Origin: a virus
Taxonomy: Duplodnaviria; Caudoviricetes
DNA: 64,000 nucleotides
Reading direction: 5' to 3' (one strand)
IMG/VR virus record: IMGVR_UViG_3300032272_000009
Coordinates: 8,683 to 72,682 of that record
Below, one piece after another: positions 8,513-25,611 of the stretch; within the stretch, counting starts at the first letter, position 1; each line of letters starts with the position of its first letter. The translations under genes and the position numbers were made by a program. The notes under the pieces were generated by a model. It did not search any database, was not told the origin of the DNA, and saw nothing but the letters and a program-made list of their open reading frames with translations.

Positions 8513-8812
8513 ATGCTGATGCTTGAAGAAATTTTAGAAAAAATGAATTTACCAAAATTGGAAGATATGAATCCGACTGATGCAGCATTAATAGCAGGGT
8601 ATTTGAAAACTGGTAATCCTGTACTTGCAGTCGGTCTTATTATGAGATTGATTAAACAGAATGAGAGTTTGTTGCGTAGCCTTAACCTGCAAATAACAGT
8701 AAATGATGATTCTTTTAGAACACATAAAGATACACTGGAAAGAGTCGAAGCACTTGAGAACAAGATGAAAAATATGTATGTGAGTGAGGATGATGTTAAA
8801 AATCCACATTGA
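8513..8812 (+). CDS. Hypothetical protein
   Basis: Start chosen at MLMLEE behind AAGGG; avoids the long overlap of the 148-aa ORF call. Confidence 0.55.
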   Translation: MLMLEEILEKMNLPKLEDMNPTDAALIAGYLKTGNPVLAVGLIMRLIKQNESLLRSLNLQITVNDDSFRTHKDTLERVEALENKMKNMYVSEDDVKNPH

Positions 8813-15462: not shown

Positions 15463-17101
15463 TTTCAGTCTTGTTGAAGACAATTCTATTGAAGGCGAAT
15501 TTATACCAGCTGGTTTTGAAGAACGCTGGTATCAAGAAGAAGCAACAGTCGCCACATTAGAAGCAATAAAAGACAAAAACCGCCACCCTATTGTAGCTGT
15601 TCCTACTGGTGGCGGTAAAACACACATCATAGGCAAGTTGATAAACAGGTACTTGCATCAAAACCCAACCCGTGACGTCATTGTTCTTAGTCACGTTAAA
15701 GAAATTCTTGTTCAAGATTATGCAGCGATAAAAAAATATACTAACGCTCCAATAGGTATATATTCTGCTATGCTTAATTCTAAAACTGTAGCAAGAATAA
15801 CTGTCGCTGGTATACAATCAGTATACAAAAGGGCTTCTGAATTTGGTGATGTTGGATTGATCATAGTTGATGAATGTCACTTGGTAACAGACGACAATCA
15901 GGGGATGTACAGAACTTTCCTTGCTGAGTTTAATGCAAACATAGTTGGTTTAACTGCTACACCATTCAGGCCTCGTGGATATTTACATCTCGTAAAAGAT
16001 GCATTGTTTACTGATATATGTTACGATCTAACTTCTTCTGCTAATTTCAGAAGACTTATTGCCGAAGGTTATCTGTCTAAACTGTATTCAAAAGCTACGT
16101 ACATGAAAATGGATGTTGATGACATACCTAATCAAGCTGGTGACTTCAACAATAAGATAATGGCAAAGAAGTTCAACACTGAAGAAGTTACAGAAATAGC
16201 GCTAGAAGAAACAATCAAAATAGGTACTAACTACAAAAAGTGGTTGATTTTTGCTATATCTATTGAACACGCTGAGTCCATCAGAGACTATTTGAATGAC
16301 GCTGGGTATAACACTGGCATAGTTCATTCAAAAATGGAAAGGGATGGTGAAGACAGGGACGAAATGCTTGCTAGGTTTAAGACTCCATTTTATCGAGCTA
16401 TGGTTAATGTCAATGTTCTCACAACCGGTCTTGACATACCAGAAATAGACTTGATAGTTATGTTAAGGCCAACTCAAAGCCCTGTGATATATGCTCAATC
16501 TGTAGGTAGAGGTCTGAGAGTGGTTAAAGGCAAGGATCATTGCTTAGTGTTAGACTTTGCTGGGAATGTTGCTAGGCATGGCCCTGTAGATGACATACAG
16601 ATAAGACAGAAGGGCGAGAAAAAGTCAGGTGATCCGGTAACTAAACAATGTCCTTCGTGTATGGCTATATGTCATCCTATAATGCAAATCTGTGAAGCTT
16701 GCGGTCATAAATTTGAATTCAAGGTTAAAATAGCTGACAAACCAACTGAACTTGATATATTAAAAACAACAAAGAAAAGCTGGTTAAACGTCAGTCTTAT
16801 GACGATAAACAAACACAAGAAACCAAAAAGTCCCGACTCAATAAGGATTGATTATGTTTGCGGTCTCAGAAAATTTAGTCAATGGGCTGCAATACAATCT
16901 AACTCTAGGCAAGCTGTACATTTCGCAAAGTATATACTAAACAAATTCTGCGACTTTCCAGAAGATTTTGAATATACAGTAGATAACATTCTTGAATATA
17001 GAGACAAGTTCAAGAAACCAAAAAGAATATACGTAGATCAAACTGAGAATTACCCACAAATAGAAGAAATTGATTTTGGAGATAATAATGAAGAAGCCTG
17101 A
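15455..17101 (+). CDS. SF2 (RadD/UvsW-like) helicase with zinc finger
   Basis: VPTGGGKT, IVDECH, LTATP, VLTTGLD.P, QSVGRGLR, CPSC...CEACG. Confidence 0.92.
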   Translation: MDSFSLVEDNSIEGEFIPAGFEERWYQEEATVATLEAIKDKNRHPIVAVPTGGGKTHIIGKLINRYLHQNPTRDVIVLSHVKEILVQDYAAIKKYTNAPIGIYSAMLNSKTVARITVAGIQSVYKRASEFGDVGLIIVDECHLVTDDNQGMYRTFLAEFNANIVGLTATPFRPRGYLHLVKDALFTDICYDLTSSANFRRLIAEGYLSKLYSKATYMKMDVDDIPNQAGDFNNKIMAKKFNTEEVTEIALEETIKIGTNYKKWLIFAISIEHAESIRDYLNDAGYNTGIVHSKMERDGEDRDEMLARFKTPFYRAMVNVNVLTTGLDIPEIDLIVMLRPTQSPVIYAQSVGRGLRVVKGKDHCLVLDFAGNVARHGPVDDIQIRQKGEKKSGDPVTKQCPSCMAICHPIMQICEACGHKFEFKVKIADKPTELDILKTTKKSWLNVSLMTINKHKKPKSPDSIRIDYVCGLRKFSQWAAIQSNSRQAVHFAKYILNKFCDFPEDFEYTVDNILEYRDKFKKPKRIYVDQTENYPQIEEIDFGDNNEEA

Positions 17102-17618
17102 AATAATAGTAAACGCTTATGAAATGAAAACAATACAAGATTTGTTTAAGATCGGTATGTCGCGTGAAGTTCCTATGCTTTTAAGTAAAGATCATGGCAC
17201 TCACATAAATGTAGGCGCTGGAACTTATAAAACTTTACACGGTGCTGAACCTATCGATTACCCTGAGTGGGACGCTAGAAAAGATCGATTACCATATGAA
17301 GACGAATCAGTTGACGTCATCCATTGTTATCACTTTCTTGAGCATATGGCCGACCCTGTATTAATACTTCAAGATTTTGAAAGAGTTTTGAAAGTTGGTG
17401 GCTACACAAACATTGTCGCACCTTACTACAATTCACATTTGCAGGCGAAATGTTTAGACCACAAATCAATGTTCAATGAGTCAACGTGGGATAATCTGTT
17501 CAACCAGTATTCATATGACAATTTTTCTGGTGAATGGAAGTTAAAAGTTCACACAACTTTTATTATGGGCGTAGAAGAAAAGAACATGGCGTTACTAACC
17601 CAATTGGTGAAGGTATAA
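17088..17618 (+). CDS. Class I SAM-dependent methyltransferase (Methyltransf_11-like)
   Basis: INVGAG, RLPYEDESVDVI.C.HFLEH, ERVLKVGG. Confidence 0.85.
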   Translation: MKKPEIIVNAYEMKTIQDLFKIGMSREVPMLLSKDHGTHINVGAGTYKTLHGAEPIDYPEWDARKDRLPYEDESVDVIHCYHFLEHMADPVLILQDFERVLKVGGYTNIVAPYYNSHLQAKCLDHKSMFNESTWDNLFNQYSYDNFSGEWKLKVHTTFIMGVEEKNMALLTQLVKV

Positions 17619-18517
17619 TGAAAATTTTTGGAGCGGGTCTATCAGGTTTGATTGCAGGCGTTGCAAACCCTAGAGCAAAGATTTATGAAAAAGGTGATTA
17701 TGGAACACAAGGTCATCAAGCACTATTGAGGTTTAGAACTAATGCCGTAAGTGATATGACTGGCATTAAGTTTAAGAAAGTAAAAGTAATCAAGGCTATT
17801 TGGAGTAATGGTGCAGAACGACAACCTTCGCCTAGATTGGTAGCTCTGTACTCACATAAGAACACTGGTCATTTCGAAAACAGATCAATTATGGATATCA
17901 AAACTGTTGAGCGGTTTATTGCTCCAGATAATTTTCATCAGTTATTGGTTGATGAGTGCGAAGATAGAATAACTTATGAACATGCTGTAGACAAAGATGA
18001 TTTTAAGTCTGATGAGAACATAATAAGCACTTTGCCATTGTCGTTCAATGCAAAAATGTTAGGTTATGATTTTCCTACTGAGAAAAACATGAGTAAAATT
18101 TATGTCACTAGGGTAATTGTAGATAATTGTGATATGTATACAACTGTGTACTATCCTGATGATGACATATCAGTATATCGTGCATCTATTACTGGAAAAA
18201 CATTGATAATCGAATCTAAAGATGAAATTGACAATGAATATTTAGGCATTGTGTTGAAATCTATGGGTTTAGATTCTTCTATCATAGAAATCGAGATGGG
18301 CAACCATATACAGCCTATGGGTAAATTGTCAGACGTTAATGACAGTGAGCGCAGGGTAATGATTTACAAAATGAGTCATGATCATGGTGTATTTAGTCTT
18401 GGTAGATTTGCACTACACAAGAATATTTTGCTTGATGATGTTGCACACGATATTAGAGTAGTAAAAGCCATGATGGCTGATGATTCTTACGGAGTTTCAA
18501 CAAGGGGTAGAACATGA
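17618..18517 (+). CDS. FAD-dependent Rossmann-fold enzyme, UDP-galactopyranose-mutase-like
   Basis: N-terminal IFGAGLSGLIAG...IYEK dinucleotide-binding motif, IISTLPL, C-terminal SLGRFA; TAATG coupling. Confidence 0.7.
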   Translation: MKIFGAGLSGLIAGVANPRAKIYEKGDYGTQGHQALLRFRTNAVSDMTGIKFKKVKVIKAIWSNGAERQPSPRLVALYSHKNTGHFENRSIMDIKTVERFIAPDNFHQLLVDECEDRITYEHAVDKDDFKSDENIISTLPLSFNAKMLGYDFPTEKNMSKIYVTRVIVDNCDMYTTVYYPDDDISVYRASITGKTLIIESKDEIDNEYLGIVLKSMGLDSSIIEIEMGNHIQPMGKLSDVNDSERRVMIYKMSHDHGVFSLGRFALHKNILLDDVAHDIRVVKAMMADDSYGVSTRGRT

Positions 18518-18951
18518 AGTTAGTAGTTGTCGATCTTGAAAACACTATATCAGATTCAAGACATAGAATGTGGTTACTTGGTTATGGTGTGGATGACGCA
18601 TCAAAAAAAGAACACTACGATAAGTTTCAAGAAGAGTTTAAATACGATAAACTGAACATGAATGTAAAAATGTTCATTGACTCGTTGGTAAGAAAAGGGT
18701 ATACTATTGTAATCCTAACAGCCAAGCTTGAGAAATACAGGGTTATGGTTACGAATTGGCTTGTAGAAAATGATGTATTGTTTTCTTCGCTGGTTATGAA
18801 GAAAAAAGAAAACATTAGTGATTTAAAATTTAAAGAAAATTATATAATTGTAAATCAAAAATTAATCACATTTGCACTTGATGACGTAGGCAGTAATTGC
18901 GCTCTATTTGGCAAATATAATATTCCATGTTTAAGGATCGAACAGAAATGA
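18514..18951 (+). CDS. HAD-superfamily phosphatase (PNKP/class B-like)
   Basis: VVDLENT (motif I variant), ILTAK (motif II), K (motif III), FALDD (motif IV). Confidence 0.75.
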   Translation: MKLVVVDLENTISDSRHRMWLLGYGVDDASKKEHYDKFQEEFKYDKLNMNVKMFIDSLVRKGYTIVILTAKLEKYRVMVTNWLVENDVLFSSLVMKKKENISDLKFKENYIIVNQKLITFALDDVGSNCALFGKYNIPCLRIEQK

Positions 18952-19502
18952 GTGACATGACAATAATAGTGACGGATACTGAAACTACCGGGTTGGTAAA
19001 GCCTATCCCTACTGATATTCAGTTTCAACCTTTCATGACAGAAATTTATGCATGTAAGCTGGATCAGAATTTTAAATTCTTGGGAGAGTTTGGGTCTCTG
19101 GTTAGACCACCAATTCCTATCTCTGCGGAAATAACTAAGATAACTGGTATAGATGATGCTAAGTTAATTGGCGCTCCAACTTTTGCTGAAATATATGATC
19201 CATTGTATGATTTCTTTCAAGGCGCTGATATGGTTGTTGGTCAAAACATAATGTTTGATATTAATGTTATCAATTATGAGTTGATGCGTCATGATTGGGA
19301 TAAAAAGTTTTGTTATCCAAAGAGGCACGTTTGCACTATTGAGTCTTCATATCACTACCAAAACAAAAGATTAAATCTTGCAAAATTGCATGAGCTTTTG
19401 TTTGGCGAAGGGTTTGAGGATGCTCATAGAGCAAAATCTGATGTTATGGCTACCGTTAGATGTTTCATTGAGCTTGTCAAGCGTGGAGATATTGTACTAT
19501 AA
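18948..19502 (+). CDS. dnaQ: DEDDh 3'-5' exonuclease (Pol III epsilon-like)
   Basis: DTETTG, GQNIMFD, HRAKSDV; ATGA-coupled to the upstream gene and adjacent to dnaE. Confidence 0.85.
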   Translation: MSDMTIIVTDTETTGLVKPIPTDIQFQPFMTEIYACKLDQNFKFLGEFGSLVRPPIPISAEITKITGIDDAKLIGAPTFAEIYDPLYDFFQGADMVVGQNIMFDINVINYELMRHDWDKKFCYPKRHVCTIESSYHYQNKRLNLAKLHELLFGEGFEDAHRAKSDVMATVRCFIELVKRGDIVL

Positions 19503-22309
19503 TGTACCACTTAACCCTAAAATCGGAATATTCTTTCAAACAGACTTTTAGTTTTCTGCAAGAGTTGCATGATAACTACTCACATAATAACGTCATTGGT
19601 ATTGCAGATACAACTACACTTGGTTTTTATAAACTGTATGAGATGTGTAAAAAATCTGGAAAGAAAGCAATATACGGTTTTAGGGTTTCCGTTGTTCAAG
19701 ATGCAACTGAAAAGGTTAAACCTAGAGGTCAGTTTGGTAAAGAATACATAATCATAGCGAAGAATTATCATGGATTACAAGAAATTTTTATGCTGTCTAA
19801 GATTCAATCTGAAAACTTTTACTATCGTGGGAACGTTAGTTGTAGTGATATTGATAGTCTTAGTCAAAATGTCTTTGTTGTTTCAACAGACCCCGTTGCT
19901 AACAGGCTTGATTTTATTGGTGTTAATTATACTACGAGGCCAAAAGTCTTAGCATATGATTACCCAAAATTATATGTCGATAATAATTACTACACAACAA
20001 ATGAAATGAAAAAGATTTATGAGTTGATGCTTGGCGGTTCAGCAGATAACAAAACATTTCCACAGCACATCTTATACCAAGATGAGATTCGTGGTTTTGG
20101 ACTTGAATGTATTGAAAATTTACAAGCTGTCGTTGACCAGTGTGAGGATATTGAGTTTAAGAAAGCTGCAAATATTAGATACAAAGGCAAAGGCAACATT
20201 GTAGATTTATGTAAAGAAGGTGCAACAAGAAAAAACATAGATTTGTCTGATCCAGTTTACAAGGCACGTTTTGAAAGGGAGATTAATCTTTTAGCAGATA
20301 AAGATTATGGTGATTATCTGCTTGTTGTTGCCGACTTGATAAAGAGTGCTAAGAAATTCTGTTTGGTTGGTGGTGGTCGTGGTTCAAGTGCTGGATCACT
20401 AGTATGTTATTTGCTTGATATTACAGAGGTCGATCCACTTGTTCATGGTTTGATCTTTGAGAGATTTGTTGATATAAACAGATACGATCCACCAGATGTT
20501 GACACAGATTTTCCAGACAACGCAAGAAAAAAGGTTGTCAAATACCTAGAAAAACTTTATGGGGTAGACAACGTAAAAACAATATCTACCATCTCAAAAT
20601 ACAAACCAAAAATAACTATTGGTGAGTTTGCAAAACATATGGAAATCCCAAAGTTTGAAACTGAGGCCGTAAAAGATATAATCATTGAGAGGGCTGGTGG
20701 GGATGCTCGGGCATCATTTTGTTTAGAAGATACTCTAATGGGAACAGATGTTGGCAAAGAGTTTCTCGAAAAACACCCTAACATGATTAACGTCAAATAT
20801 GCAGAAGGACACAGCAAACAGAAAGGCAAACACGCAGCTGGGGTAATTGTATGTAATGACCCAATAGTTGAGTATTGTGGTATTGATTCAAGAGATGAAA
20901 CCGCAATGCTTGACAAGAAAGATGCGGAAAAACTGAACCTGTTAAAAATTGATGTTCTAGGTCTTAGAACTTTGTCAGTGTTACAAGATTGTGCCAAAGC
21001 AATAAAAATGGATTACAGAGATTATTATAAGTTACCACTCGATGATGAGAATGCTTATAAGGTATTCCAAGAAAAAAGATTGGGTGGTATATTCCAGTTT
21101 GAAGGCGAAGCAATGAAGTCTATAAATGACTCGGCCCCAATGGAGAAGTTTGAAGATATAGTTGCTGCTGGTGCTTTGGGTAGACCGGGAGCATTATCAT
21201 CTGGTGGGACATCAAGGTACGTCCAGTTAAGGAATGGTACTAGAGAGCCTTTGTACTATTGTCCTGAACATAAGAAACTGACAGAAGAAACTTATGGTAT
21301 CGTCATATATCAAGAGCAAATGATGTGGTTGTGTAAAAATATTGCTGGCATGTCTTGGGAGGATGTGTCAGATTTAAGAAAGGCCGCATCAAAATCGCTA
21401 GGTGAAGAGTTTTTTGATAAGTATAGAATCAAGTTTGTTGAAGGCGCATGTTCACTTTCTGGATACGATGAAGAGACAGCAAATAAAGCTTGGCTGGATA
21501 TAAGCTCGATGGGTTCTTATGCCTTCAACAAGTCTCACAGTGTTGTTTATGGGCAGATAAGCTACTGGACAGCATATATGAAGGCCAATTACCCATTGGA
21601 GTTTATTGCGTCAATTCTAAACAATGCTAAGGATGATGATAGCTCATTAAAAATATTGCGTGAATTCTATGAGTCTGAAGATTTAGTATTTAAAGCCGTT
21701 GATCCTTGGAAATCAAAGACTGCATGGGAGATTATAGACGGAACTTTGCTTGGCGGCATAACAAATATAAAAGGAATTGGCGCAGCAAAAGCACTAGATA
21801 TAATAAAAATGAGAGAAGGCAAGAAACCATTTACACCAGCTATGAAAAGACATATGGAGAATCCAAAAACCCCATTTGATGTACTTTACCCAGCTCAACA
21901 TCATTGGGGCGAGCTGTATAGAGACCCGCAGAAATTCGGTTTGAACAAAGTTGACTATATAAAAGATGTTGAATCGCCTAGGGATTATGCTATAATAGGC
22001 AAAATGATACATGTGGATGATGTCAATGTTAATGATGTTCAATCAATAGCAAAAAGAGGTGGTGAGGTATTAGACGGCCCAAACATGAAAGTTCATGTAA
22101 GGCTAGAAGATGACACTGGCGTTATGATGTGTATAGTGAATAGATTTGTATATGAAAAACTATCACAAGATTTCCTTAGAGAAAAGGTTGGTGAAACCTG
22201 GTTCTGTTTGATAGGTAAAGTTATGCCTGGCGCTAAGATATTGTTCGTTAAAGAAGTGGCAAATCTGAATAGAGATATTGGTCTTAATGAATCCGAGGAA
22301 CAAAGATAG
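19502..22309 (+). CDS. dnaE: DNA polymerase III alpha subunit (C family), compact
   Basis: GRGSSAGSLVCYLL.IT.VDP, FERF, PPDVDTDF, KHAAGV, LLKIDVLGL, YQEQ, YAFNKSH; degenerate PHP at the N-terminus, OB fold at the C-terminus. Confidence 0.95.
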   Translation: MYHLTLKSEYSFKQTFSFLQELHDNYSHNNVIGIADTTTLGFYKLYEMCKKSGKKAIYGFRVSVVQDATEKVKPRGQFGKEYIIIAKNYHGLQEIFMLSKIQSENFYYRGNVSCSDIDSLSQNVFVVSTDPVANRLDFIGVNYTTRPKVLAYDYPKLYVDNNYYTTNEMKKIYELMLGGSADNKTFPQHILYQDEIRGFGLECIENLQAVVDQCEDIEFKKAANIRYKGKGNIVDLCKEGATRKNIDLSDPVYKARFEREINLLADKDYGDYLLVVADLIKSAKKFCLVGGGRGSSAGSLVCYLLDITEVDPLVHGLIFERFVDINRYDPPDVDTDFPDNARKKVVKYLEKLYGVDNVKTISTISKYKPKITIGEFAKHMEIPKFETEAVKDIIIERAGGDARASFCLEDTLMGTDVGKEFLEKHPNMINVKYAEGHSKQKGKHAAGVIVCNDPIVEYCGIDSRDETAMLDKKDAEKLNLLKIDVLGLRTLSVLQDCAKAIKMDYRDYYKLPLDDENAYKVFQEKRLGGIFQFEGEAMKSINDSAPMEKFEDIVAAGALGRPGALSSGGTSRYVQLRNGTREPLYYCPEHKKLTEETYGIVIYQEQMMWLCKNIAGMSWEDVSDLRKAASKSLGEEFFDKYRIKFVEGACSLSGYDEETANKAWLDISSMGSYAFNKSHSVVYGQISYWTAYMKANYPLEFIASILNNAKDDDSSLKILREFYESEDLVFKAVDPWKSKTAWEIIDGTLLGGITNIKGIGAAKALDIIKMREGKKPFTPAMKRHMENPKTPFDVLYPAQHHWGELYRDPQKFGLNKVDYIKDVESPRDYAIIGKMIHVDDVNVNDVQSIAKRGGEVLDGPNMKVHVRLEDDTGVMMCIVNRFVYEKLSQDFLREKVGETWFCLIGKVMPGAKILFVKEVANLNRDIGLNESEEQR

Positions 22310-22734
22310 TGAATTTCATAGTATTTAGTGGCATCTCAGAATCATTTAACAAGGCTATAATAAGTGCTTGTTTAGAAAAAACAAACTATAGAGATTATTT
22401 TGTAAATAGAGACCCGAGCAACTGTATGGCTCTAAATTTTATACAAGATAAAATCGATACTATTGAGCAAATGGACGAATATATTGGTTTTTTAAATTAT
22501 TTCAAAGAAGGTGTAGATTTAGCTGTATTGATAACATGTGATAATGAAGCATTAGAAAAAAGATTCGCAGATTATAACAAAATTTTTACCAGTAATGAAT
22601 CATTTTTAGAACGACAAGAGGTGATAAAACAGTATTTTGATAAAGCGAAATATCAAAACTGTATAGAAATAAATGCTACGGACAAAACTGTAGATCAATG
22701 TGTCAAGTTAATAATAAACAAACTAGAGGAATAA
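22309..22734 (+). CDS. dNMP/thymidylate-kinase-like fold with degenerate P-loop
   Basis: IVFSGISESFNK in place of IxxEGxDGxGKT; NRDP, LITCDNEALEKRF and IEINAT.KTVDQ follow TMPK topology. Confidence 0.5.
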   Translation: MNFIVFSGISESFNKAIISACLEKTNYRDYFVNRDPSNCMALNFIQDKIDTIEQMDEYIGFLNYFKEGVDLAVLITCDNEALEKRFADYNKIFTSNESFLERQEVIKQYFDKAKYQNCIEINATDKTVDQCVKLIINKLEE

Positions 22735-22740
22735 TAAGTT

Positions 22741-23643
22741 ATGCCAGTCAATAATGAATTAGAAGAGCGCCCACTTTTGGTAAATCTGAAGATAGGTGAA
22801 AAACCTAAAACACGGTTCTTGCATGGTCTTGATGCAGTAAATGTTCGAATGATTGATTGCCCTACCACAGAAGACTTGATGAAGTATATCCCAGAATTTG
22901 CGTCTGGTACTTGGGAAGACAAATCAAAAACAGATTTTACTGATGCTGAGCGTGCTCAAGTAGTAGATGATCTGTTTGCAGGTTATATCCTGCCTACAGC
23001 TCTTGAAACCATCAAGATGACATTTATCATCGAAGGTATTGATTTGGTTGATGTATGCCATCTTATCCGCCATAGAACTTTGTCATTCTCTGCTCAAGGT
23101 ACTGGTGACCGTGACATGCGAAATGATGATATTTTGGTCAAGCCTTCAATTCTTGGTAATAAAAAGTATGCTGACAGATTTGAGAAACTGATGCTTGACG
23201 CAAAAGACCTGTATGCTGATGTAACAGATGATCCAGATATGCCTATTCTTGATGCTCGCACATTCATGCCACGCTGTACATCAAACTACTACTATGTGTC
23301 TGGCGATCTTAAAGCAATCATGGCTTTTGTTGGTCAGCGCAAGGATGAGTCTATTGAGCCAGAAACAATGAACATCTTTGCTCTCAAATTGTGGATTGAA
23401 GTTGTTAAGCGTTTTCCACAACTAAAAGGAAAAATTGACCTGTTATCACCAGATCATTTTGCAATTGAAACGTCTATAGGTGGTAGAAGTAGCAATTTCT
23501 ACAAACCTGAACCAAAGAACGATATTTATGAGTATCGTCTTGACTGGTTCATGAGAGACAAAATGCGCCAAGAAATGACTGGTGGGCAAGATTACATCAT
23601 CATGCGTGACAAACTGATTGATCAATTTAATGAAATAGTTTAA
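22741..23643 (+). CDS. Divergent ThyX (flavin-dependent thymidylate synthase) fold protein
   Basis: TFIIEGI...HLIRHRTLSFSAQ, DARTFMP, and later R...W features; the canonical SxRY is replaced by GTGD. Confidence 0.8.
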   Translation: MPVNNELEERPLLVNLKIGEKPKTRFLHGLDAVNVRMIDCPTTEDLMKYIPEFASGTWEDKSKTDFTDAERAQVVDDLFAGYILPTALETIKMTFIIEGIDLVDVCHLIRHRTLSFSAQGTGDRDMRNDDILVKPSILGNKKYADRFEKLMLDAKDLYADVTDDPDMPILDARTFMPRCTSNYYYVSGDLKAIMAFVGQRKDESIEPETMNIFALKLWIEVVKRFPQLKGKIDLLSPDHFAIETSIGGRSSNFYKPEPKNDIYEYRLDWFMRDKMRQEMTGGQDYIIMRDKLIDQFNEIV

Positions 23644-23649
23644 GAGGTA

Positions 23650-23943
23650 GTGATGGCTAAGAAAAAGATAATTCTGGTTGAGGGCGACAAACATTTTGGT
23701 TTGATTGAAAACTATATCAATGCAGATGAAAATGATCTACCAACGCCAGAGCATGTCTTACAAGATGAGTTTAACAGGATGATGGATAAAATAAAATCAT
23801 TGGTTAATGTAAGCTCAATAATCGAAAATAAAGAAGTGAAGCTTGTATTGGAAGAAAAGATTGCGGCATATAAGGATGCTTCTCAATCTTTGCTTTATGT
23901 AGTTGAGAAAATAAATCAATTCAAAATGGAGATAAAACAGTGA
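23650..23943 (+). CDS. Hypothetical protein
   Basis: 97-aa ORF, GAGG SD, coupled downstream. Confidence 0.6.
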   Translation: MMAKKKIILVEGDKHFGLIENYINADENDLPTPEHVLQDEFNRMMDKIKSLVNVSSIIENKEVKLVLEEKIAAYKDASQSLLYVVEKINQFKMEIKQ

Positions 23944-24518
23944 GCAATATTCAACACCCTGAAATGGTAAAAGGTTTGGCAAAAAGTGGCGCACAGATAA
24001 TCAATGATTTTACGCCAGATACAGCCCATATACTGCACATGGCAATTGGGATAGCTGGAGAATCTGGTGAGTTAGCTTCTGTCATTCACTCGAAATTTGA
24101 GTTTGAGGCAATTGACAAAAAGAACGTCGTGGAAGAGCTTGGTGATCTTGAGTTTTATCTTGAGGGGTTTCGACAGGGGTTAGGCATTAGTCGCTTGGAA
24201 ACAATTGTGGATGATACATCATATGACATGGATCGTGGGATTATGTCAAGTGCAAAAAATGGTGCCATGTTCTTAAATATTGCGTCATCAATCTTGCTTG
24301 ACCAGATAAAGAAAGTTGCATTCTATGTCAAGCCAGTAAATACTGACAACGTGGTAAAATCTCTTATCAAGATTGAAGGTCATATGTATATCTTGAGAAA
24401 GTGTTTTTATATTACGTATGAGCAGACTCTCGAACACAACATAGCCAAGCTTGGTGATCGCTATCAAGGCCATCAATATTCTGATGAACAGGCAATAGCT
24501 AGAGCTGATAAAAACTAG
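23940..24518 (+). CDS. mazG: MazG-like all-alpha NTP pyrophosphohydrolase with internal duplication
   Basis: HMAIGIAGESGEL...VEELGDLEFY; second degenerate repeat ending NIAKL.DRY. Confidence 0.8.
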   Translation: MSNIQHPEMVKGLAKSGAQIINDFTPDTAHILHMAIGIAGESGELASVIHSKFEFEAIDKKNVVEELGDLEFYLEGFRQGLGISRLETIVDDTSYDMDRGIMSSAKNGAMFLNIASSILLDQIKKVAFYVKPVNTDNVVKSLIKIEGHMYILRKCFYITYEQTLEHNIAKLGDRYQGHQYSDEQAIARADKN

Positions 24519-24763
24519 TGCAACAAACCAGAGTTGAATCTGCAATAGAAAGAGCTTGTGATATTATCACAGGCTTTTTTCTTTCGTGGTGTTTGTATGA
24601 ATTTTATATAAGAAACCATCCTGAGTTTTCAAGTTTGTATATAGTATCTTGTTTTACCGCAGTATCATTGATAAGAGGCTATTACTGGCGCAGATTCTTC
24701 AATAGAGGTTTGCATAAAATTGTACATAAATACGCAAACAAAATCTTTAAGAGGTTAAAATGA
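24518..24763 (+). CDS. Small membrane protein
   Basis: 81 aa, two hydrophobic segments, [13 protein letters not shown] motif. Confidence 0.65.
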
Positions 24764-25611
24764 AAGAATATTTGAAGTTATGTAACAGAGTGATCAACGA
24801 AGGTCACTGGGTTACTAACAAAAGAACTGGTAAGCGTTGTCTTACTGTTATAAATGCAGACTTAGAGTATTATGTAGGCGATGGTACTCTTCCAGTTTTG
24901 ACTACTAAAAAACTGTTCTGGAAACCTGCAATTGCAGAGATGCTTGGATACTTGCGAGGTTATACAAGTGCTGCTCAGTTCAGAAGGCTTGGATGTAATA
25001 CATGGAATGCAAATGCTAATGAAAATTCTGCTTGGCTTGCAAACAGGTTTAGAACTGGTGTAGATGACATGGGCAGATGTTACGGTGCTCAAGGTAGAGA
25101 CTGGAGAAACCCAGAAAATGAATCTATCGACCAGTTAAGAAATATTTACAATGACCTTCGAAATGGGATTGATAATAGAAGTGAGATTCTTACTTTTATG
25201 AATCCCGGAGAGAGAGACAGGGCTTGTTTAAATTCCTGTATGCACACACACACCTTTAGTTTGCTGGATGGTGGCTTGTATTTGACATCATACCAGAGGT
25301 CTGATGACCTGCCACTAGGACATGGCTTTAATCAGGTGCAGGTGGCTTGGTTGTTGATGATAATGGCACAGATAACAGGCTTAAGAGCTGAGACAGCCTA
25401 TCATAAAATAGTCAATGCTCATATTTATGAAGACCAGTTGCAACAGTTGCAGGATGTTCAATTGGTGCGGGAGCCTCTAAACCTTCCAACTTTGCGAATA
25501 AATCCTGAGATTAAAACACTGGAAGACTTAGAGACTTGGGTTACTCTGGATGATTTTGAACTTTTAGATTATGAACATCATCCTGCGATAAAATATGAAT
25601 TTAGTGTTTAG
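24760..25611 (+). CDS. thyA: Thymidylate synthase (ThyA, Vibrionaceae/Pasteurellaceae type)
   Basis: [30 protein letters not shown] (catalytic Cys), YQRSDD...[11 protein letters not shown]. Confidence 0.93.

Follow-up and report, generated by a model that had tools for sequence, protein, structure and literature searches.

A Virus-Only Family of ThyX Paralogues with a Rebuilt Active-Site Loop, and Its Possible Role in Pyrimidine Nucleotide Modification

The window analyzed here is a 64-kb stretch (positions 8,683–72,682) of a 72,682-bp virus record (IMGVR_UViG_3300032272_000009; genome G000), which is rated 100% complete and originates from a sediment metagenome; a lookup of sequencing runs listed one DNA dataset, from sediment and in all probability the sample of origin, and zero RNA datasets. 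Among its replication genes lies an open reading frame (ORF) for a protein with the fold of ThyX, the flavin-dependent thymidylate synthase, in which the S-x-R-Y motif of the canonical enzyme is replaced by a G-T-G-D-R loop. This ThyX-like protein belongs to a family found in viruses only, members of which often occur together with a true thymidylate synthase. We tentatively propose that it is a flavin-dependent hydroxymethylase of pyrimidine deoxynucleoside monophosphates (dNMPs), with a product other than deoxythymidine monophosphate (dTMP).

The ThyX-like protein and its family

In a profile search the ThyX-like protein matched the Pfam Thy1 family (PF02511) with an E-value of 6.2e-15 and 55.9 bits, against a gathering cut-off of 24.8. 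An AlphaFold2 model computed with 20 homologues as input has a mean predicted local distance difference test score (pLDDT) of 89, and its top Foldseek matches are all structures of ThyX or PolB (3HZG, 3GWC, 1O27, and 4P5B), with a probability of 1.0, template-modeling (TM) scores of 0.5–0.7, and 15–20% identity. With ThyX/Thy1 (EC 2.1.1.148; Thermotoga maritima TM0449, Mycobacterium tuberculosis Rv2754c, PBCV-1 A674R) it shares the fold, the RHR motif, the equivalents of E58, R147, and R174, a predicted homo-oligomer interface around the RHR loop, and a setting in phage nucleotide metabolism. Unlike ThyX, it has an extra N-terminal arm of about 60 amino acids (residues 1–63) and a C-terminal extension of about 70 (roughly residues 230–300), both specific to the family.

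The family profile was aligned to T. maritima ThyX (chain numbers minus the 12-residue tag) to obtain the residue equivalences in Table 1. The loop of the window protein reads H107-L-I-R110-H-R112-TLSFSAQ-G120-T-G-D123-R-D-M-R127, with GTGDRDMR at residues 120–127 standing for S-x-R-Y after RHR at 110–112, and LPTALET at residues 84–90 standing for H-x-[ST]-x-x-E-H. Both replacements had been read from the DNA in the original prediction, and the alignment bears them out, with E58 kept as E89 in the second motif. The claim that the residues on the folate side and on the side of the substrate, deoxyuridine monophosphate (dUMP), are all changed was too strong: the equivalents of R78, R147, and R174 are essentially invariant. 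In ThyX these three arginines contact or activate dUMP, and H53 reportedly stacks on the folate pterin. S88 and Y91 of ThyX are strictly conserved and critical, and the mutants S88A, R90A, and Y91A consume the flavin carbinolamine more slowly, Y91A by more than 100-fold (PMC8316439, PMC11940539). The loss of S88, R90, and Y91 thus argues against ordinary dTMP synthesis.

Table 1. Residues of T. maritima ThyX, their equivalents in the window protein, and conservation among 211 non-redundant family proteins
T. maritima ThyX	Window protein	Family (of 211)
H53	L84	L 202
E58	E89 (Glu kept)	
H59	T90	
Q75	H107	H 211
R78	R110	R 211
H79	H111	H 202
R80	R112	R 207
S88	G120	C 128, G 73 (C or G 201)
G89	T121	T 188
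R90	G122	G 183, A 20 (G or A 203)
Y91	D123	D 207
S92	R124	R 195, K 11 (R or K 206)
R147	R173	R 209
R174	R200	R 211

Homologues are numerous among viruses. A word-indexed search returned 120; with HMMER, run exhaustively over 1.84 billion cluster representatives, only 243 matched at E<=1e-3; and IMG/VR contained 229 loci, from which 211 distinct proteins were analyzed. A search of 185,579 prokaryotic species genomes by pattern and tblastn yielded no relative. Among GenBank phages the sole good match is in Geobacillus phage GR1 (35% identity, E 9e-55), the remaining ones being weak and falling in canonical ThyX genes. GR1 is the only cultured carrier that we found; its protein is labeled in databases as a thymidylate synthase dependent on flavin adenine dinucleotide (FAD), and our literature search found no paper characterizing the [C/G]-T-G-D-R family.

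Because the same replacements are kept in 211 non-redundant homologues, the pattern is far beyond chance. Conservation of the GTGD stretch had been named as a check in the original prediction; the consensus there is [C/G]-T-G-D-R, with no random decay, and by this measure the loop changes are the signature of a virus-only family and not decay. Near-invariant residues also occur in the family-specific arms (W58, Y254, P256, N260, D261, and R276), and the N-terminus has a conserved Met-Pro, with Pro2 present in 179 of the 211. At positions conserved in at least 80% of members, the window protein departs from the consensus at only one of 59. It is 85% identical to its counterpart in the closest relative (locus L002), where DNA polymerase III alpha is 88% and the helicase 82% identical, and 79% identical to that of L003, where the corresponding values are 67% and 55%. 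It is thus better conserved than most replication genes, and, to judge from these identities, the gene is under strong constraint.

A catalytic Cys nucleophile was considered and rejected. Cys occurs at position 106 in 61 members and at position 120 in 128, and the two are mutually exclusive, none of the 211 having both; 25 have Cys at neither place, the split follows clades, and no nucleophile is claimed.

In a tree built with FastTree, family members group in a clade free of any S-x-R-Y sequence, including the canonical ThyX proteins of the same phages, with moderate support (0.685). More distant relatives share a QQC[TS]GDxDxRH loop, including those with R-x-R in place of RHR. A wider set of viral ThyX-like proteins (P0160-P0262) has this loop in the form VRxR[IV]G[VI]T[FY]SQQC[TS]GDxDxRH, the middle His of RHR being gone, and several S-x-R-[IV] subfamilies also occur among viral ThyX-like proteins. 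Judged by these motifs, the annotation "thymidylate synthase" greatly understates the diversity of the viral ThyX superfamily. No fused form longer than 525 amino acids was found for the ThyX-like protein; longer proteins in the search of representatives comprised one fusion to a homing endonuclease and one weak fusion to a family 2 glycosyltransferase (GT2), a hint only at 22.1 bits, below the cut-off.

Modeled as two copies with FAD, the protein scored 0.78, the best of three controls being at 0.00. The score reached a mark that 20 of 30 proteins solved as pairs of one chain attain, as does one of 23 solved as single chains, although it may reflect likeness only, because ThyX tetramers are among the solved structures. 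At least 97% of contacts were common to the runs, and the pLDDT of the partner was 89 or higher. The predicted interface is symmetric and comprises the RHR loop (109–113), the T-G-D loop (121–123), and residues 164–179 including R173, together with residues 2–16 of the N-terminal arm and 248–282 of the C-terminal extension. The active sites of ThyX lie at subunit interfaces, and the position of the new arms at the modeled interface therefore makes it plausible that they form part of a rebuilt active site. We consider that the ThyX-like protein is probably a functional, oligomeric flavoprotein.

Accompanying thymidylate synthases and gene context

True thymidylate synthases were sought in 36 related virus records. 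Canonical ThyX (115–177 bits, 216–271 amino acids) is encoded alongside the ThyX-like gene in 14 of them and ThyA in three, so that one or the other is present in 17; among genomes at least 90% complete, both genes occur in five of 11, or six of 12 with the window genome, and genomes carrying both include ones of 40–46 kb with terminal repeats. The canonical enzyme is often encoded in the same operon, as at locus L024, where the order is ThyX-like, gp56-like, deoxycytidine monophosphate (dCMP) deaminase, and ThyX. In the closest relative (L002/G001), a canonical S-x-R-Y ThyX reading RHRTQSYNELSARY is encoded where the window has the DUF7220 and ThyA genes; the true synthase has thus been swapped between non-homologous types while the paralogue was kept. 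Large (jumbo) phages normally show an anticorrelation of ThyA and ThyX (PMC7824862); the ThyX-like family shows no anticorrelation with true thymidylate synthases and no mutual exclusivity.

The normal ThyA that had been placed 1.1 kb downstream in the original prediction does lie there, starting 1,117 bp past the ThyX-like stop codon (Table 2). Like the ThyA-family genes of genomes G004, G026, and G031, and unlike T4 gp42, it keeps the catalytic Cys, the Asn177 equivalent, and a C-terminus of the thymidylate synthase type. It has R-S at the place of Escherichia coli R126-R127 and CMH, not CH, after the catalytic Cys, and it lacks the second phosphate-binding Arg, a place where the Vibrionales/Alteromonadales-type enzyme has Gly (PMC6005164). 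It resembles the enzymes of Vibrionales, Alteromonadales, Aeromonadales, and Pasteurellales, which hints at a host from those orders. Given this gene, the ThyX-like gene is probably not the dTMP synthase of the phage, a job that the downstream ThyA would do.

Gene context was surveyed in 82 loci, in which ORFs were called, clustered, and annotated. A nucleoside 2-deoxyribosyltransferase-like protein (PF05014) is encoded in 76 of them, a YfbR-like HD 5'-deoxynucleotidase in 49, DNA polymerase III alpha in 38, and a short-chain dehydrogenase/reductase (SDR) of the epimerase/dehydratase type in 37. All-alpha nucleoside triphosphate pyrophosphatases are represented by a dUTPase_2/MazG cluster (41 loci), DUF6378 (23), and a dUTPase_2-NT5C fusion (20). 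A dCMP deaminase gene is present in 17 loci, abutting the ThyX-like gene in L012 and L013, and a small P-loop kinase resembling thymidylate kinase (TMK) in at least 11. The carrier phages share few other genes; they range over genomes of about 40 kb with terminal repeats, polymerase III phages of 57–83 kb, contigs of 100–200 kb, and a Geobacillus siphovirus. The pyrophosphatase cluster of 41 loci is homologous to the T4 dCTPase/dUTPase gp56 (E down to 1.8e-11), which is annotated as also hydrolyzing deoxyuridine triphosphate (dUTP).

A group of six loci to which GR1 belongs (the GR1 group) has the gene order deoxyribosyltransferase, HD protein, glycosyltransferase, TMK-like kinase, RNase H, nitroreductase, ThyX-like, a further gene, DNA polymerase III alpha, and gp56-like protein. 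The glycosyltransferase matches phrog_2888, "alpha-glucosyltransferase," with an E-value of 6e-53 and aligns with the T4 alpha-glucosyltransferase a-gt over 332 residues (pairwise BLASTP E 1e-10). The only PF02511 gene of the complete GR1 genome is the ThyX-like paralogue, reading RHRTFSFSAQCTGDRW, and no PF00303 gene was found in that genome; the paper describing GR1 contains nothing on DNA modification. In GR1, then, the T4 enzymes by which a hydroxymethyl base is fed and decorated have homologues, a hydroxymethylase of the ThyA type is missing, and the ThyX paralogue is left as sole candidate for making such a base; it is mainly because of this gene set that a hydroxymethylase function is proposed.

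In the window the ThyX-like gene lies between replication genes and a set of small nucleotide-metabolism genes (Table 2). The TMK-like protein encoded directly upstream has a degenerate Walker A motif, GISESFNKA as against GIDKSGKTS in L002 and L007, its DR motif reads NR where those relatives keep DR, and its identity to its orthologue is just 54%; these changes make it likely a pseudo-kinase or a repurposed protein. In the clade of the window, L002, and L007, no deoxyribosyltransferase and HD pair was found; its slot is filled by a Rossmann flavoprotein and a haloacid dehalogenase (HAD)-family phosphatase, with a gene for an S-adenosylmethionine (SAM)-dependent methyltransferase fold ahead of them. 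The sister phages L003, L004, and L006 have at the same position an FkbM-type methyltransferase, a nucleoside deoxyribosyltransferase, and an HD 5'-nucleotidase, which suggests that the swapped modules are analogous two-enzyme units. Homologues of the flavoprotein, at 36–40% identity, occur in 362 phage records, 292 of them from Pseudomonas phages (mostly Pbunavirus) and others from Wifcevirus, Serratia, Vibrio VA-RY-3, and Rhizobium RHph_TM30, and always in a module of helicase, flavoprotein, phosphatase, exonuclease, and DNA polymerase III alpha.

Table 2. Features of the window around the ThyX-like gene, with one more distant tail gene
Positions	Strand	Product	Remarks
17070–17618	+	SAM-dependent methyltransferase-fold protein	
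17618–18517	+	Virus-specific FAD/NAD(P) Rossmann flavoprotein	Homologues labeled "UDP-galactopyranose mutase" or "polyamine oxidase"
18514–18951	+	HAD-family (PNKP-type) phosphatase	
18927–19502	+	DnaQ-like exonuclease	Replication gene around the module
19502–22309	+	DNA polymerase III alpha	Replication gene around the module
22309–22734	+	Small TMK-like P-loop protein	Directly upstream of the ThyX-like gene; ORF intact
22741–23643	+	ThyX-fold paralogue, [C/G]-T-G-D-R family	300 amino acids
23650–23943	+	97-amino-acid protein	Closest relatives only
23940–24518	+	MazG-like all-alpha nucleoside triphosphate pyrophosphatase	phrog_229, E 3.6e-27
24518–24763	+	DUF7220 small protein	
24760–25611	+	ThyA-type thymidylate synthase	PF00303 full length, 239.6 bits; 283 amino acids
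28215–33569	-	Tail-associated protein, 1,784 amino acids	Long run of FG-GAP-like repeats, GDxFGxSVSISGDGNT...GAAYIFTRSG

Comparison with known systems

ThyX itself differs from the family in the loop and in the residues set out in Table 1, in lacking the two arms, and in its distribution: the ThyX-like family co-occurs with canonical thymidylate synthases and is found in viruses only. The role proposed here is that of the T4 dCMP hydroxymethylase gp42 and of the dUMP hydroxymethylases of SPO1 (gp29) and PhiW-14, in which a thymidylate synthase paralogue likewise stands beside a true thymidylate synthase. The proposed likeness would extend to a feeding pyrophosphatase (the gp56 homologues), to a kinase acting on dNMPs, and to the a-gt homologue of the GR1 group. 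Those enzymes have the ThyA fold and a Cys nucleophile, whereas the ThyX-like protein has the ThyX fold, has no conserved Cys, and presumably needs a flavin. Of such partners the window phage has only a MazG-like enzyme, a degenerate kinase, and ThyA, with no homologue of gp56 or a-gt. To our knowledge, the enzymes that install the hydroxymethyl handle for hypermodification of phage DNA are all of the ThyA fold.

A neofunctionalized ThyX paralogue beside a housekeeping thymidylate synthase has a precedent in PolB of Streptomyces cacaoi (4P5A/4P5B), a UMP/dUMP C5-methylase of polyoxin biosynthesis that is among the best sequence and structure matches of the window protein. Unlike the latter, PolB keeps the canonical Ser, still methylates, and is a bacterial protein encoded in an antibiotic gene cluster.

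The DNA of phage SP-15 carries dihydroxypentyl-uracil. Its Thy1-family protein gp130 has been hypothesized to be a hydroxymethyluridylate (hmdUMP) synthase (Kropinski et al. 2018; PMC5977210), and the idea of two Thy1 genes, one for a thymidylate synthase and one for a hydroxymethylase, as proposed for SP-15, is shared here. In that phage (KT624200, 113729-116910; L096) the degenerate Thy1-like gp130 is immediately preceded by genes for a deoxyribosyltransferase (gp127) and an SDR protein (gp129), which echoes the order ThyX-like, deoxyribosyltransferase, SDR of the large uncultured phages L046 and L063. In contrast to the ThyX-like family, gp130 lacks RHR, and no relation between the two was detectable (hhalign probability 0.7%).

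Pbunavirus, Wifcevirus, and Vibrio VA-RY-3 phages have the same replication module as the window, with a "thymidylate synthase" next to the mutase-like flavoprotein. The Pbunavirus-type ThyX variant was considered as a family member and rejected, as it belongs to another subfamily, with RTR...T-S-R-A or RNR...T-M-R-I in the loop (hhalign probability 88–96%, 17–22% identity). The Pbunaviruses F8 and 14-1 contain hypermodified thymidine in TG context, to which no genes have been assigned (PMC12191111).

Proposed function and its alternatives

From the fold, the motif changes, the conservation, the phyletic pattern, and the gene context, we infer FAD use, a substrate, a product, and each catalytic step as follows. 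FAD would be bound through the retained RHR and residues of the C-terminal helix, as in ThyX, and a pyrimidine dNMP would be stacked on the flavin, held and polarized by R110, R173, and R200. The substrate would preferably be dUMP, because the R174 equivalent is invariant and a dCMP deaminase is adjacent, with dCMP also possible; by analogy, the T4-like gene set of the relatives would fit dCMP and dUMP equally. A one-carbon (methylene) unit would be moved to C5 of the pyrimidine. In the rebuilt loop, with S88 changed to C/G, R90 to G, Y91 to D, and S92 to R, and with the folate-stacking H53 changed to L, the acid/arginine pair by flavin N5 and pyrimidine C5 would pass from Y91/R90 to D123/R124, and the exocyclic methylene intermediate would be hydrated, not reduced, to give 5-hydroxymethyl-dUMP, which we favor, or 5-hydroxymethyl-dCMP. 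Intermediates of ThyX can reportedly be trapped as hydroxymethyl-dUMP. A neighboring MazG-type pyrophosphatase would supply the dNMP, and the TMK-like kinase would phosphorylate the product; in certain relatives the base, once in DNA, would be decorated by an alpha-glucosyltransferase of the T4 type.

Several observations weigh against such a hydroxymethylase. The link to a glycosyltransferase is limited to the one subgroup of six loci, and neither a glycosyltransferase nor a gp56 homologue was found in the window phage, where the adjoining kinase has moreover lost its Walker A motif. Why a deoxyribosyltransferase gene should be an almost universal partner is explained neither by the hydroxymethylase model nor by the rival models. 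Activation of the R174 type, adjacency of dCMP deaminase, and a TMK-like kinase are equally expected of a real thymidylate synthase, and D123 with R124 could replace the acid-plus-arginine pair of Y91 and R90 in the same reaction. Six of the 12 near-complete genomes hold the ThyX-like gene and no other thymidylate synthase, which fits a plain thymidylate synthase as well.

Restriction sites add to these points. In the whole genome, AGATCT, CCATGG, CTGCAG, and TCTAGA have 0 copies each against 11–14 expected, and GAGCTC, GCTAGC, AGTACT, and GGATCC have one each; the observed-to-expected ratio (O/E) is 0.66 for GATC and 0.36 for CGCG. With these eight 6-bp palindromes nearly absent, the DNA seems exposed to restriction enzymes. 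The summed O/E of 0.865 compares with 0.97 for T4 (glucosylated 5-hydroxymethylcytosine, no avoided site), 0.79 for SPO1 (5-hydroxymethyluracil, three avoided), 0.63 for T7 (unmodified, 10 avoided), about 1.0 for loci of the large-phage group, and 0.74–0.82 for the 40-kb group. A modification that is bulky and broadly protective, or TG-specific, therefore appears unlikely in this phage, the TG-containing CCATGG and CTGCAG being strongly avoided; small modifications such as 5-hydroxymethyluracil are compatible with site avoidance, because SPO1 avoids sites too.

The original prediction had seen in the protein a neofunctionalized flavin enzyme acting on a pyrimidine nucleotide and the likely core of a modification pathway. 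The former gains comparative support from the family-signature loop, the co-occurrence with canonical thymidylate synthases, and the nucleotide-pool gene clusters. The latter is plausible for the GR1 group, with its a-gt and gp56 homologues and no ThyA-type hydroxymethylase; in the window phage, with its kinase, glycosyltransferase, and palindromes as described, the downstream pathway looks reduced.

Among the alternatives, a divergent but genuine flavin-dependent thymidylate synthase, in which D123 and R124 act for Y91 and R90, dTMP is made, and the co-resident synthase is redundant or recently acquired, is in our judgment unlikely, at about half the weight that we give to a hydroxymethylase. 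The database label of the GR1 protein agrees with it, as do the retained equivalents of R78, R147, R174, and E58, the half of the near-complete genomes that lack another synthase, and a context of dCMP deaminase, dUTPase-like enzymes, and TMK-like kinase that is classical for dTMP; yet S88, R90, Y91, and H53 are all replaced, where mutation of S88, R90, or Y91 strongly slows ThyX, and the co-occurring ThyX or ThyA (17 of 36 records, fully complete 40–46 kb genomes included, often in the same operon) changes type while the ThyX-like gene stays. Nor would it leave GR1, with its a-gt homologue, any other candidate enzyme for a hydroxymethyl base. If the protein is a plain thymidylate synthase, S88, R90, Y91, and H53 would be replaceable wholesale, which bears on the mechanism of ThyX and on inhibitor design. 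A dCMP-specific analogue of T4 gp42, which would make 5-hydroxymethyl- or 5-methyl-dCMP and so modify cytosine and not thymine, seems somewhat less probable still. The relatives mirror the T4 set of gp56-type dCTPase, dNMP kinase, dCMP deaminase, separate thymidylate synthase, and a-gt homologue, the new invariant Asp (D123) would lie beside the C4/C5 side of the pyrimidine, and Cys takes the S88 position in 128 of 211 proteins. Against this, R200, the counterpart of the uracil-activating R174, is invariant; no nucleophile is universal, the 25 proteins without Cys at 106 and 120 included; the dCMP deaminase gene that abuts the ThyX-like gene in several loci points to dUMP supply; and gp56 of T4 hydrolyzes dUTP as well.

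About as unlikely as a genuine thymidylate synthase is a folate-independent flavoenzyme, which would subject a pyrimidine (as nucleoside, base, or nucleotide) to a redox or other reaction in salvage or base swapping, together with the HD nucleotidase and deoxyribosyltransferase or, in the window clade, with the Rossmann flavoprotein and HAD phosphatase. Such an enzyme would accord with the Leu that replaces the folate-stacking H53 in 202 of 211 proteins, the rebuilt phosphate-side loop, the constancy of the deoxyribosyltransferase as a neighbor, the nitroreductase-type flavin reductase that adjoins the ThyX-like gene in the GR1 group, and the flavoprotein and phosphatase in the deoxyribosyltransferase/HD slot of the window clade. 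However, none of these features is evidence for a given reaction, the phosphate-binding R147 has its counterpart preserved in R173, and Leu could still stack on the pterin. That the protein is a decaying or non-catalytic ThyX remnant, redundant beside ThyA, is very improbable: the canonical catalytic residues are gone and the adjoining kinase is degenerate in this phage, but the ORF is intact and only one of 59 conserved positions is off, the 85% and 79% identities to relatives are level with or above those of the polymerase, and the active-site arginines are invariant across the 211 proteins.

A hydroxymethylase thus remains the reading that we prefer. In its widest form, which we advance a little more hesitantly, the [C/G]-T-G-D-R paralogues may be the first flavin-dependent pyrimidine deoxynucleotide hydroxymethylases, a non-homologous stand-in for T4 gp42 and SPO1 gp29 that would seed hydroxymethyl-pyrimidine DNA across hundreds of uncultured phages, glucosylated in GR1-like ones, with a possible undescribed branch of nucleotide-pool editing formed by the deoxyribosyltransferase together with the HD nucleotidase or, in the present phage, by the Rossmann flavoprotein together with the HAD phosphatase. 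If this is true, the family would add a new activity to the flavin methylene-transfer scaffold, explain a gene mislabeled as "FAD-dependent thymidylate synthase" in databases, and provide a marker for modified genomes among uncultured phages, genomes that matter for restriction evasion, sequencing bias, and the design of phage therapy. Geobacillus phage GR1, growing on G. stearothermophilus ATCC 10149, offers a cultured entry point to this biology.

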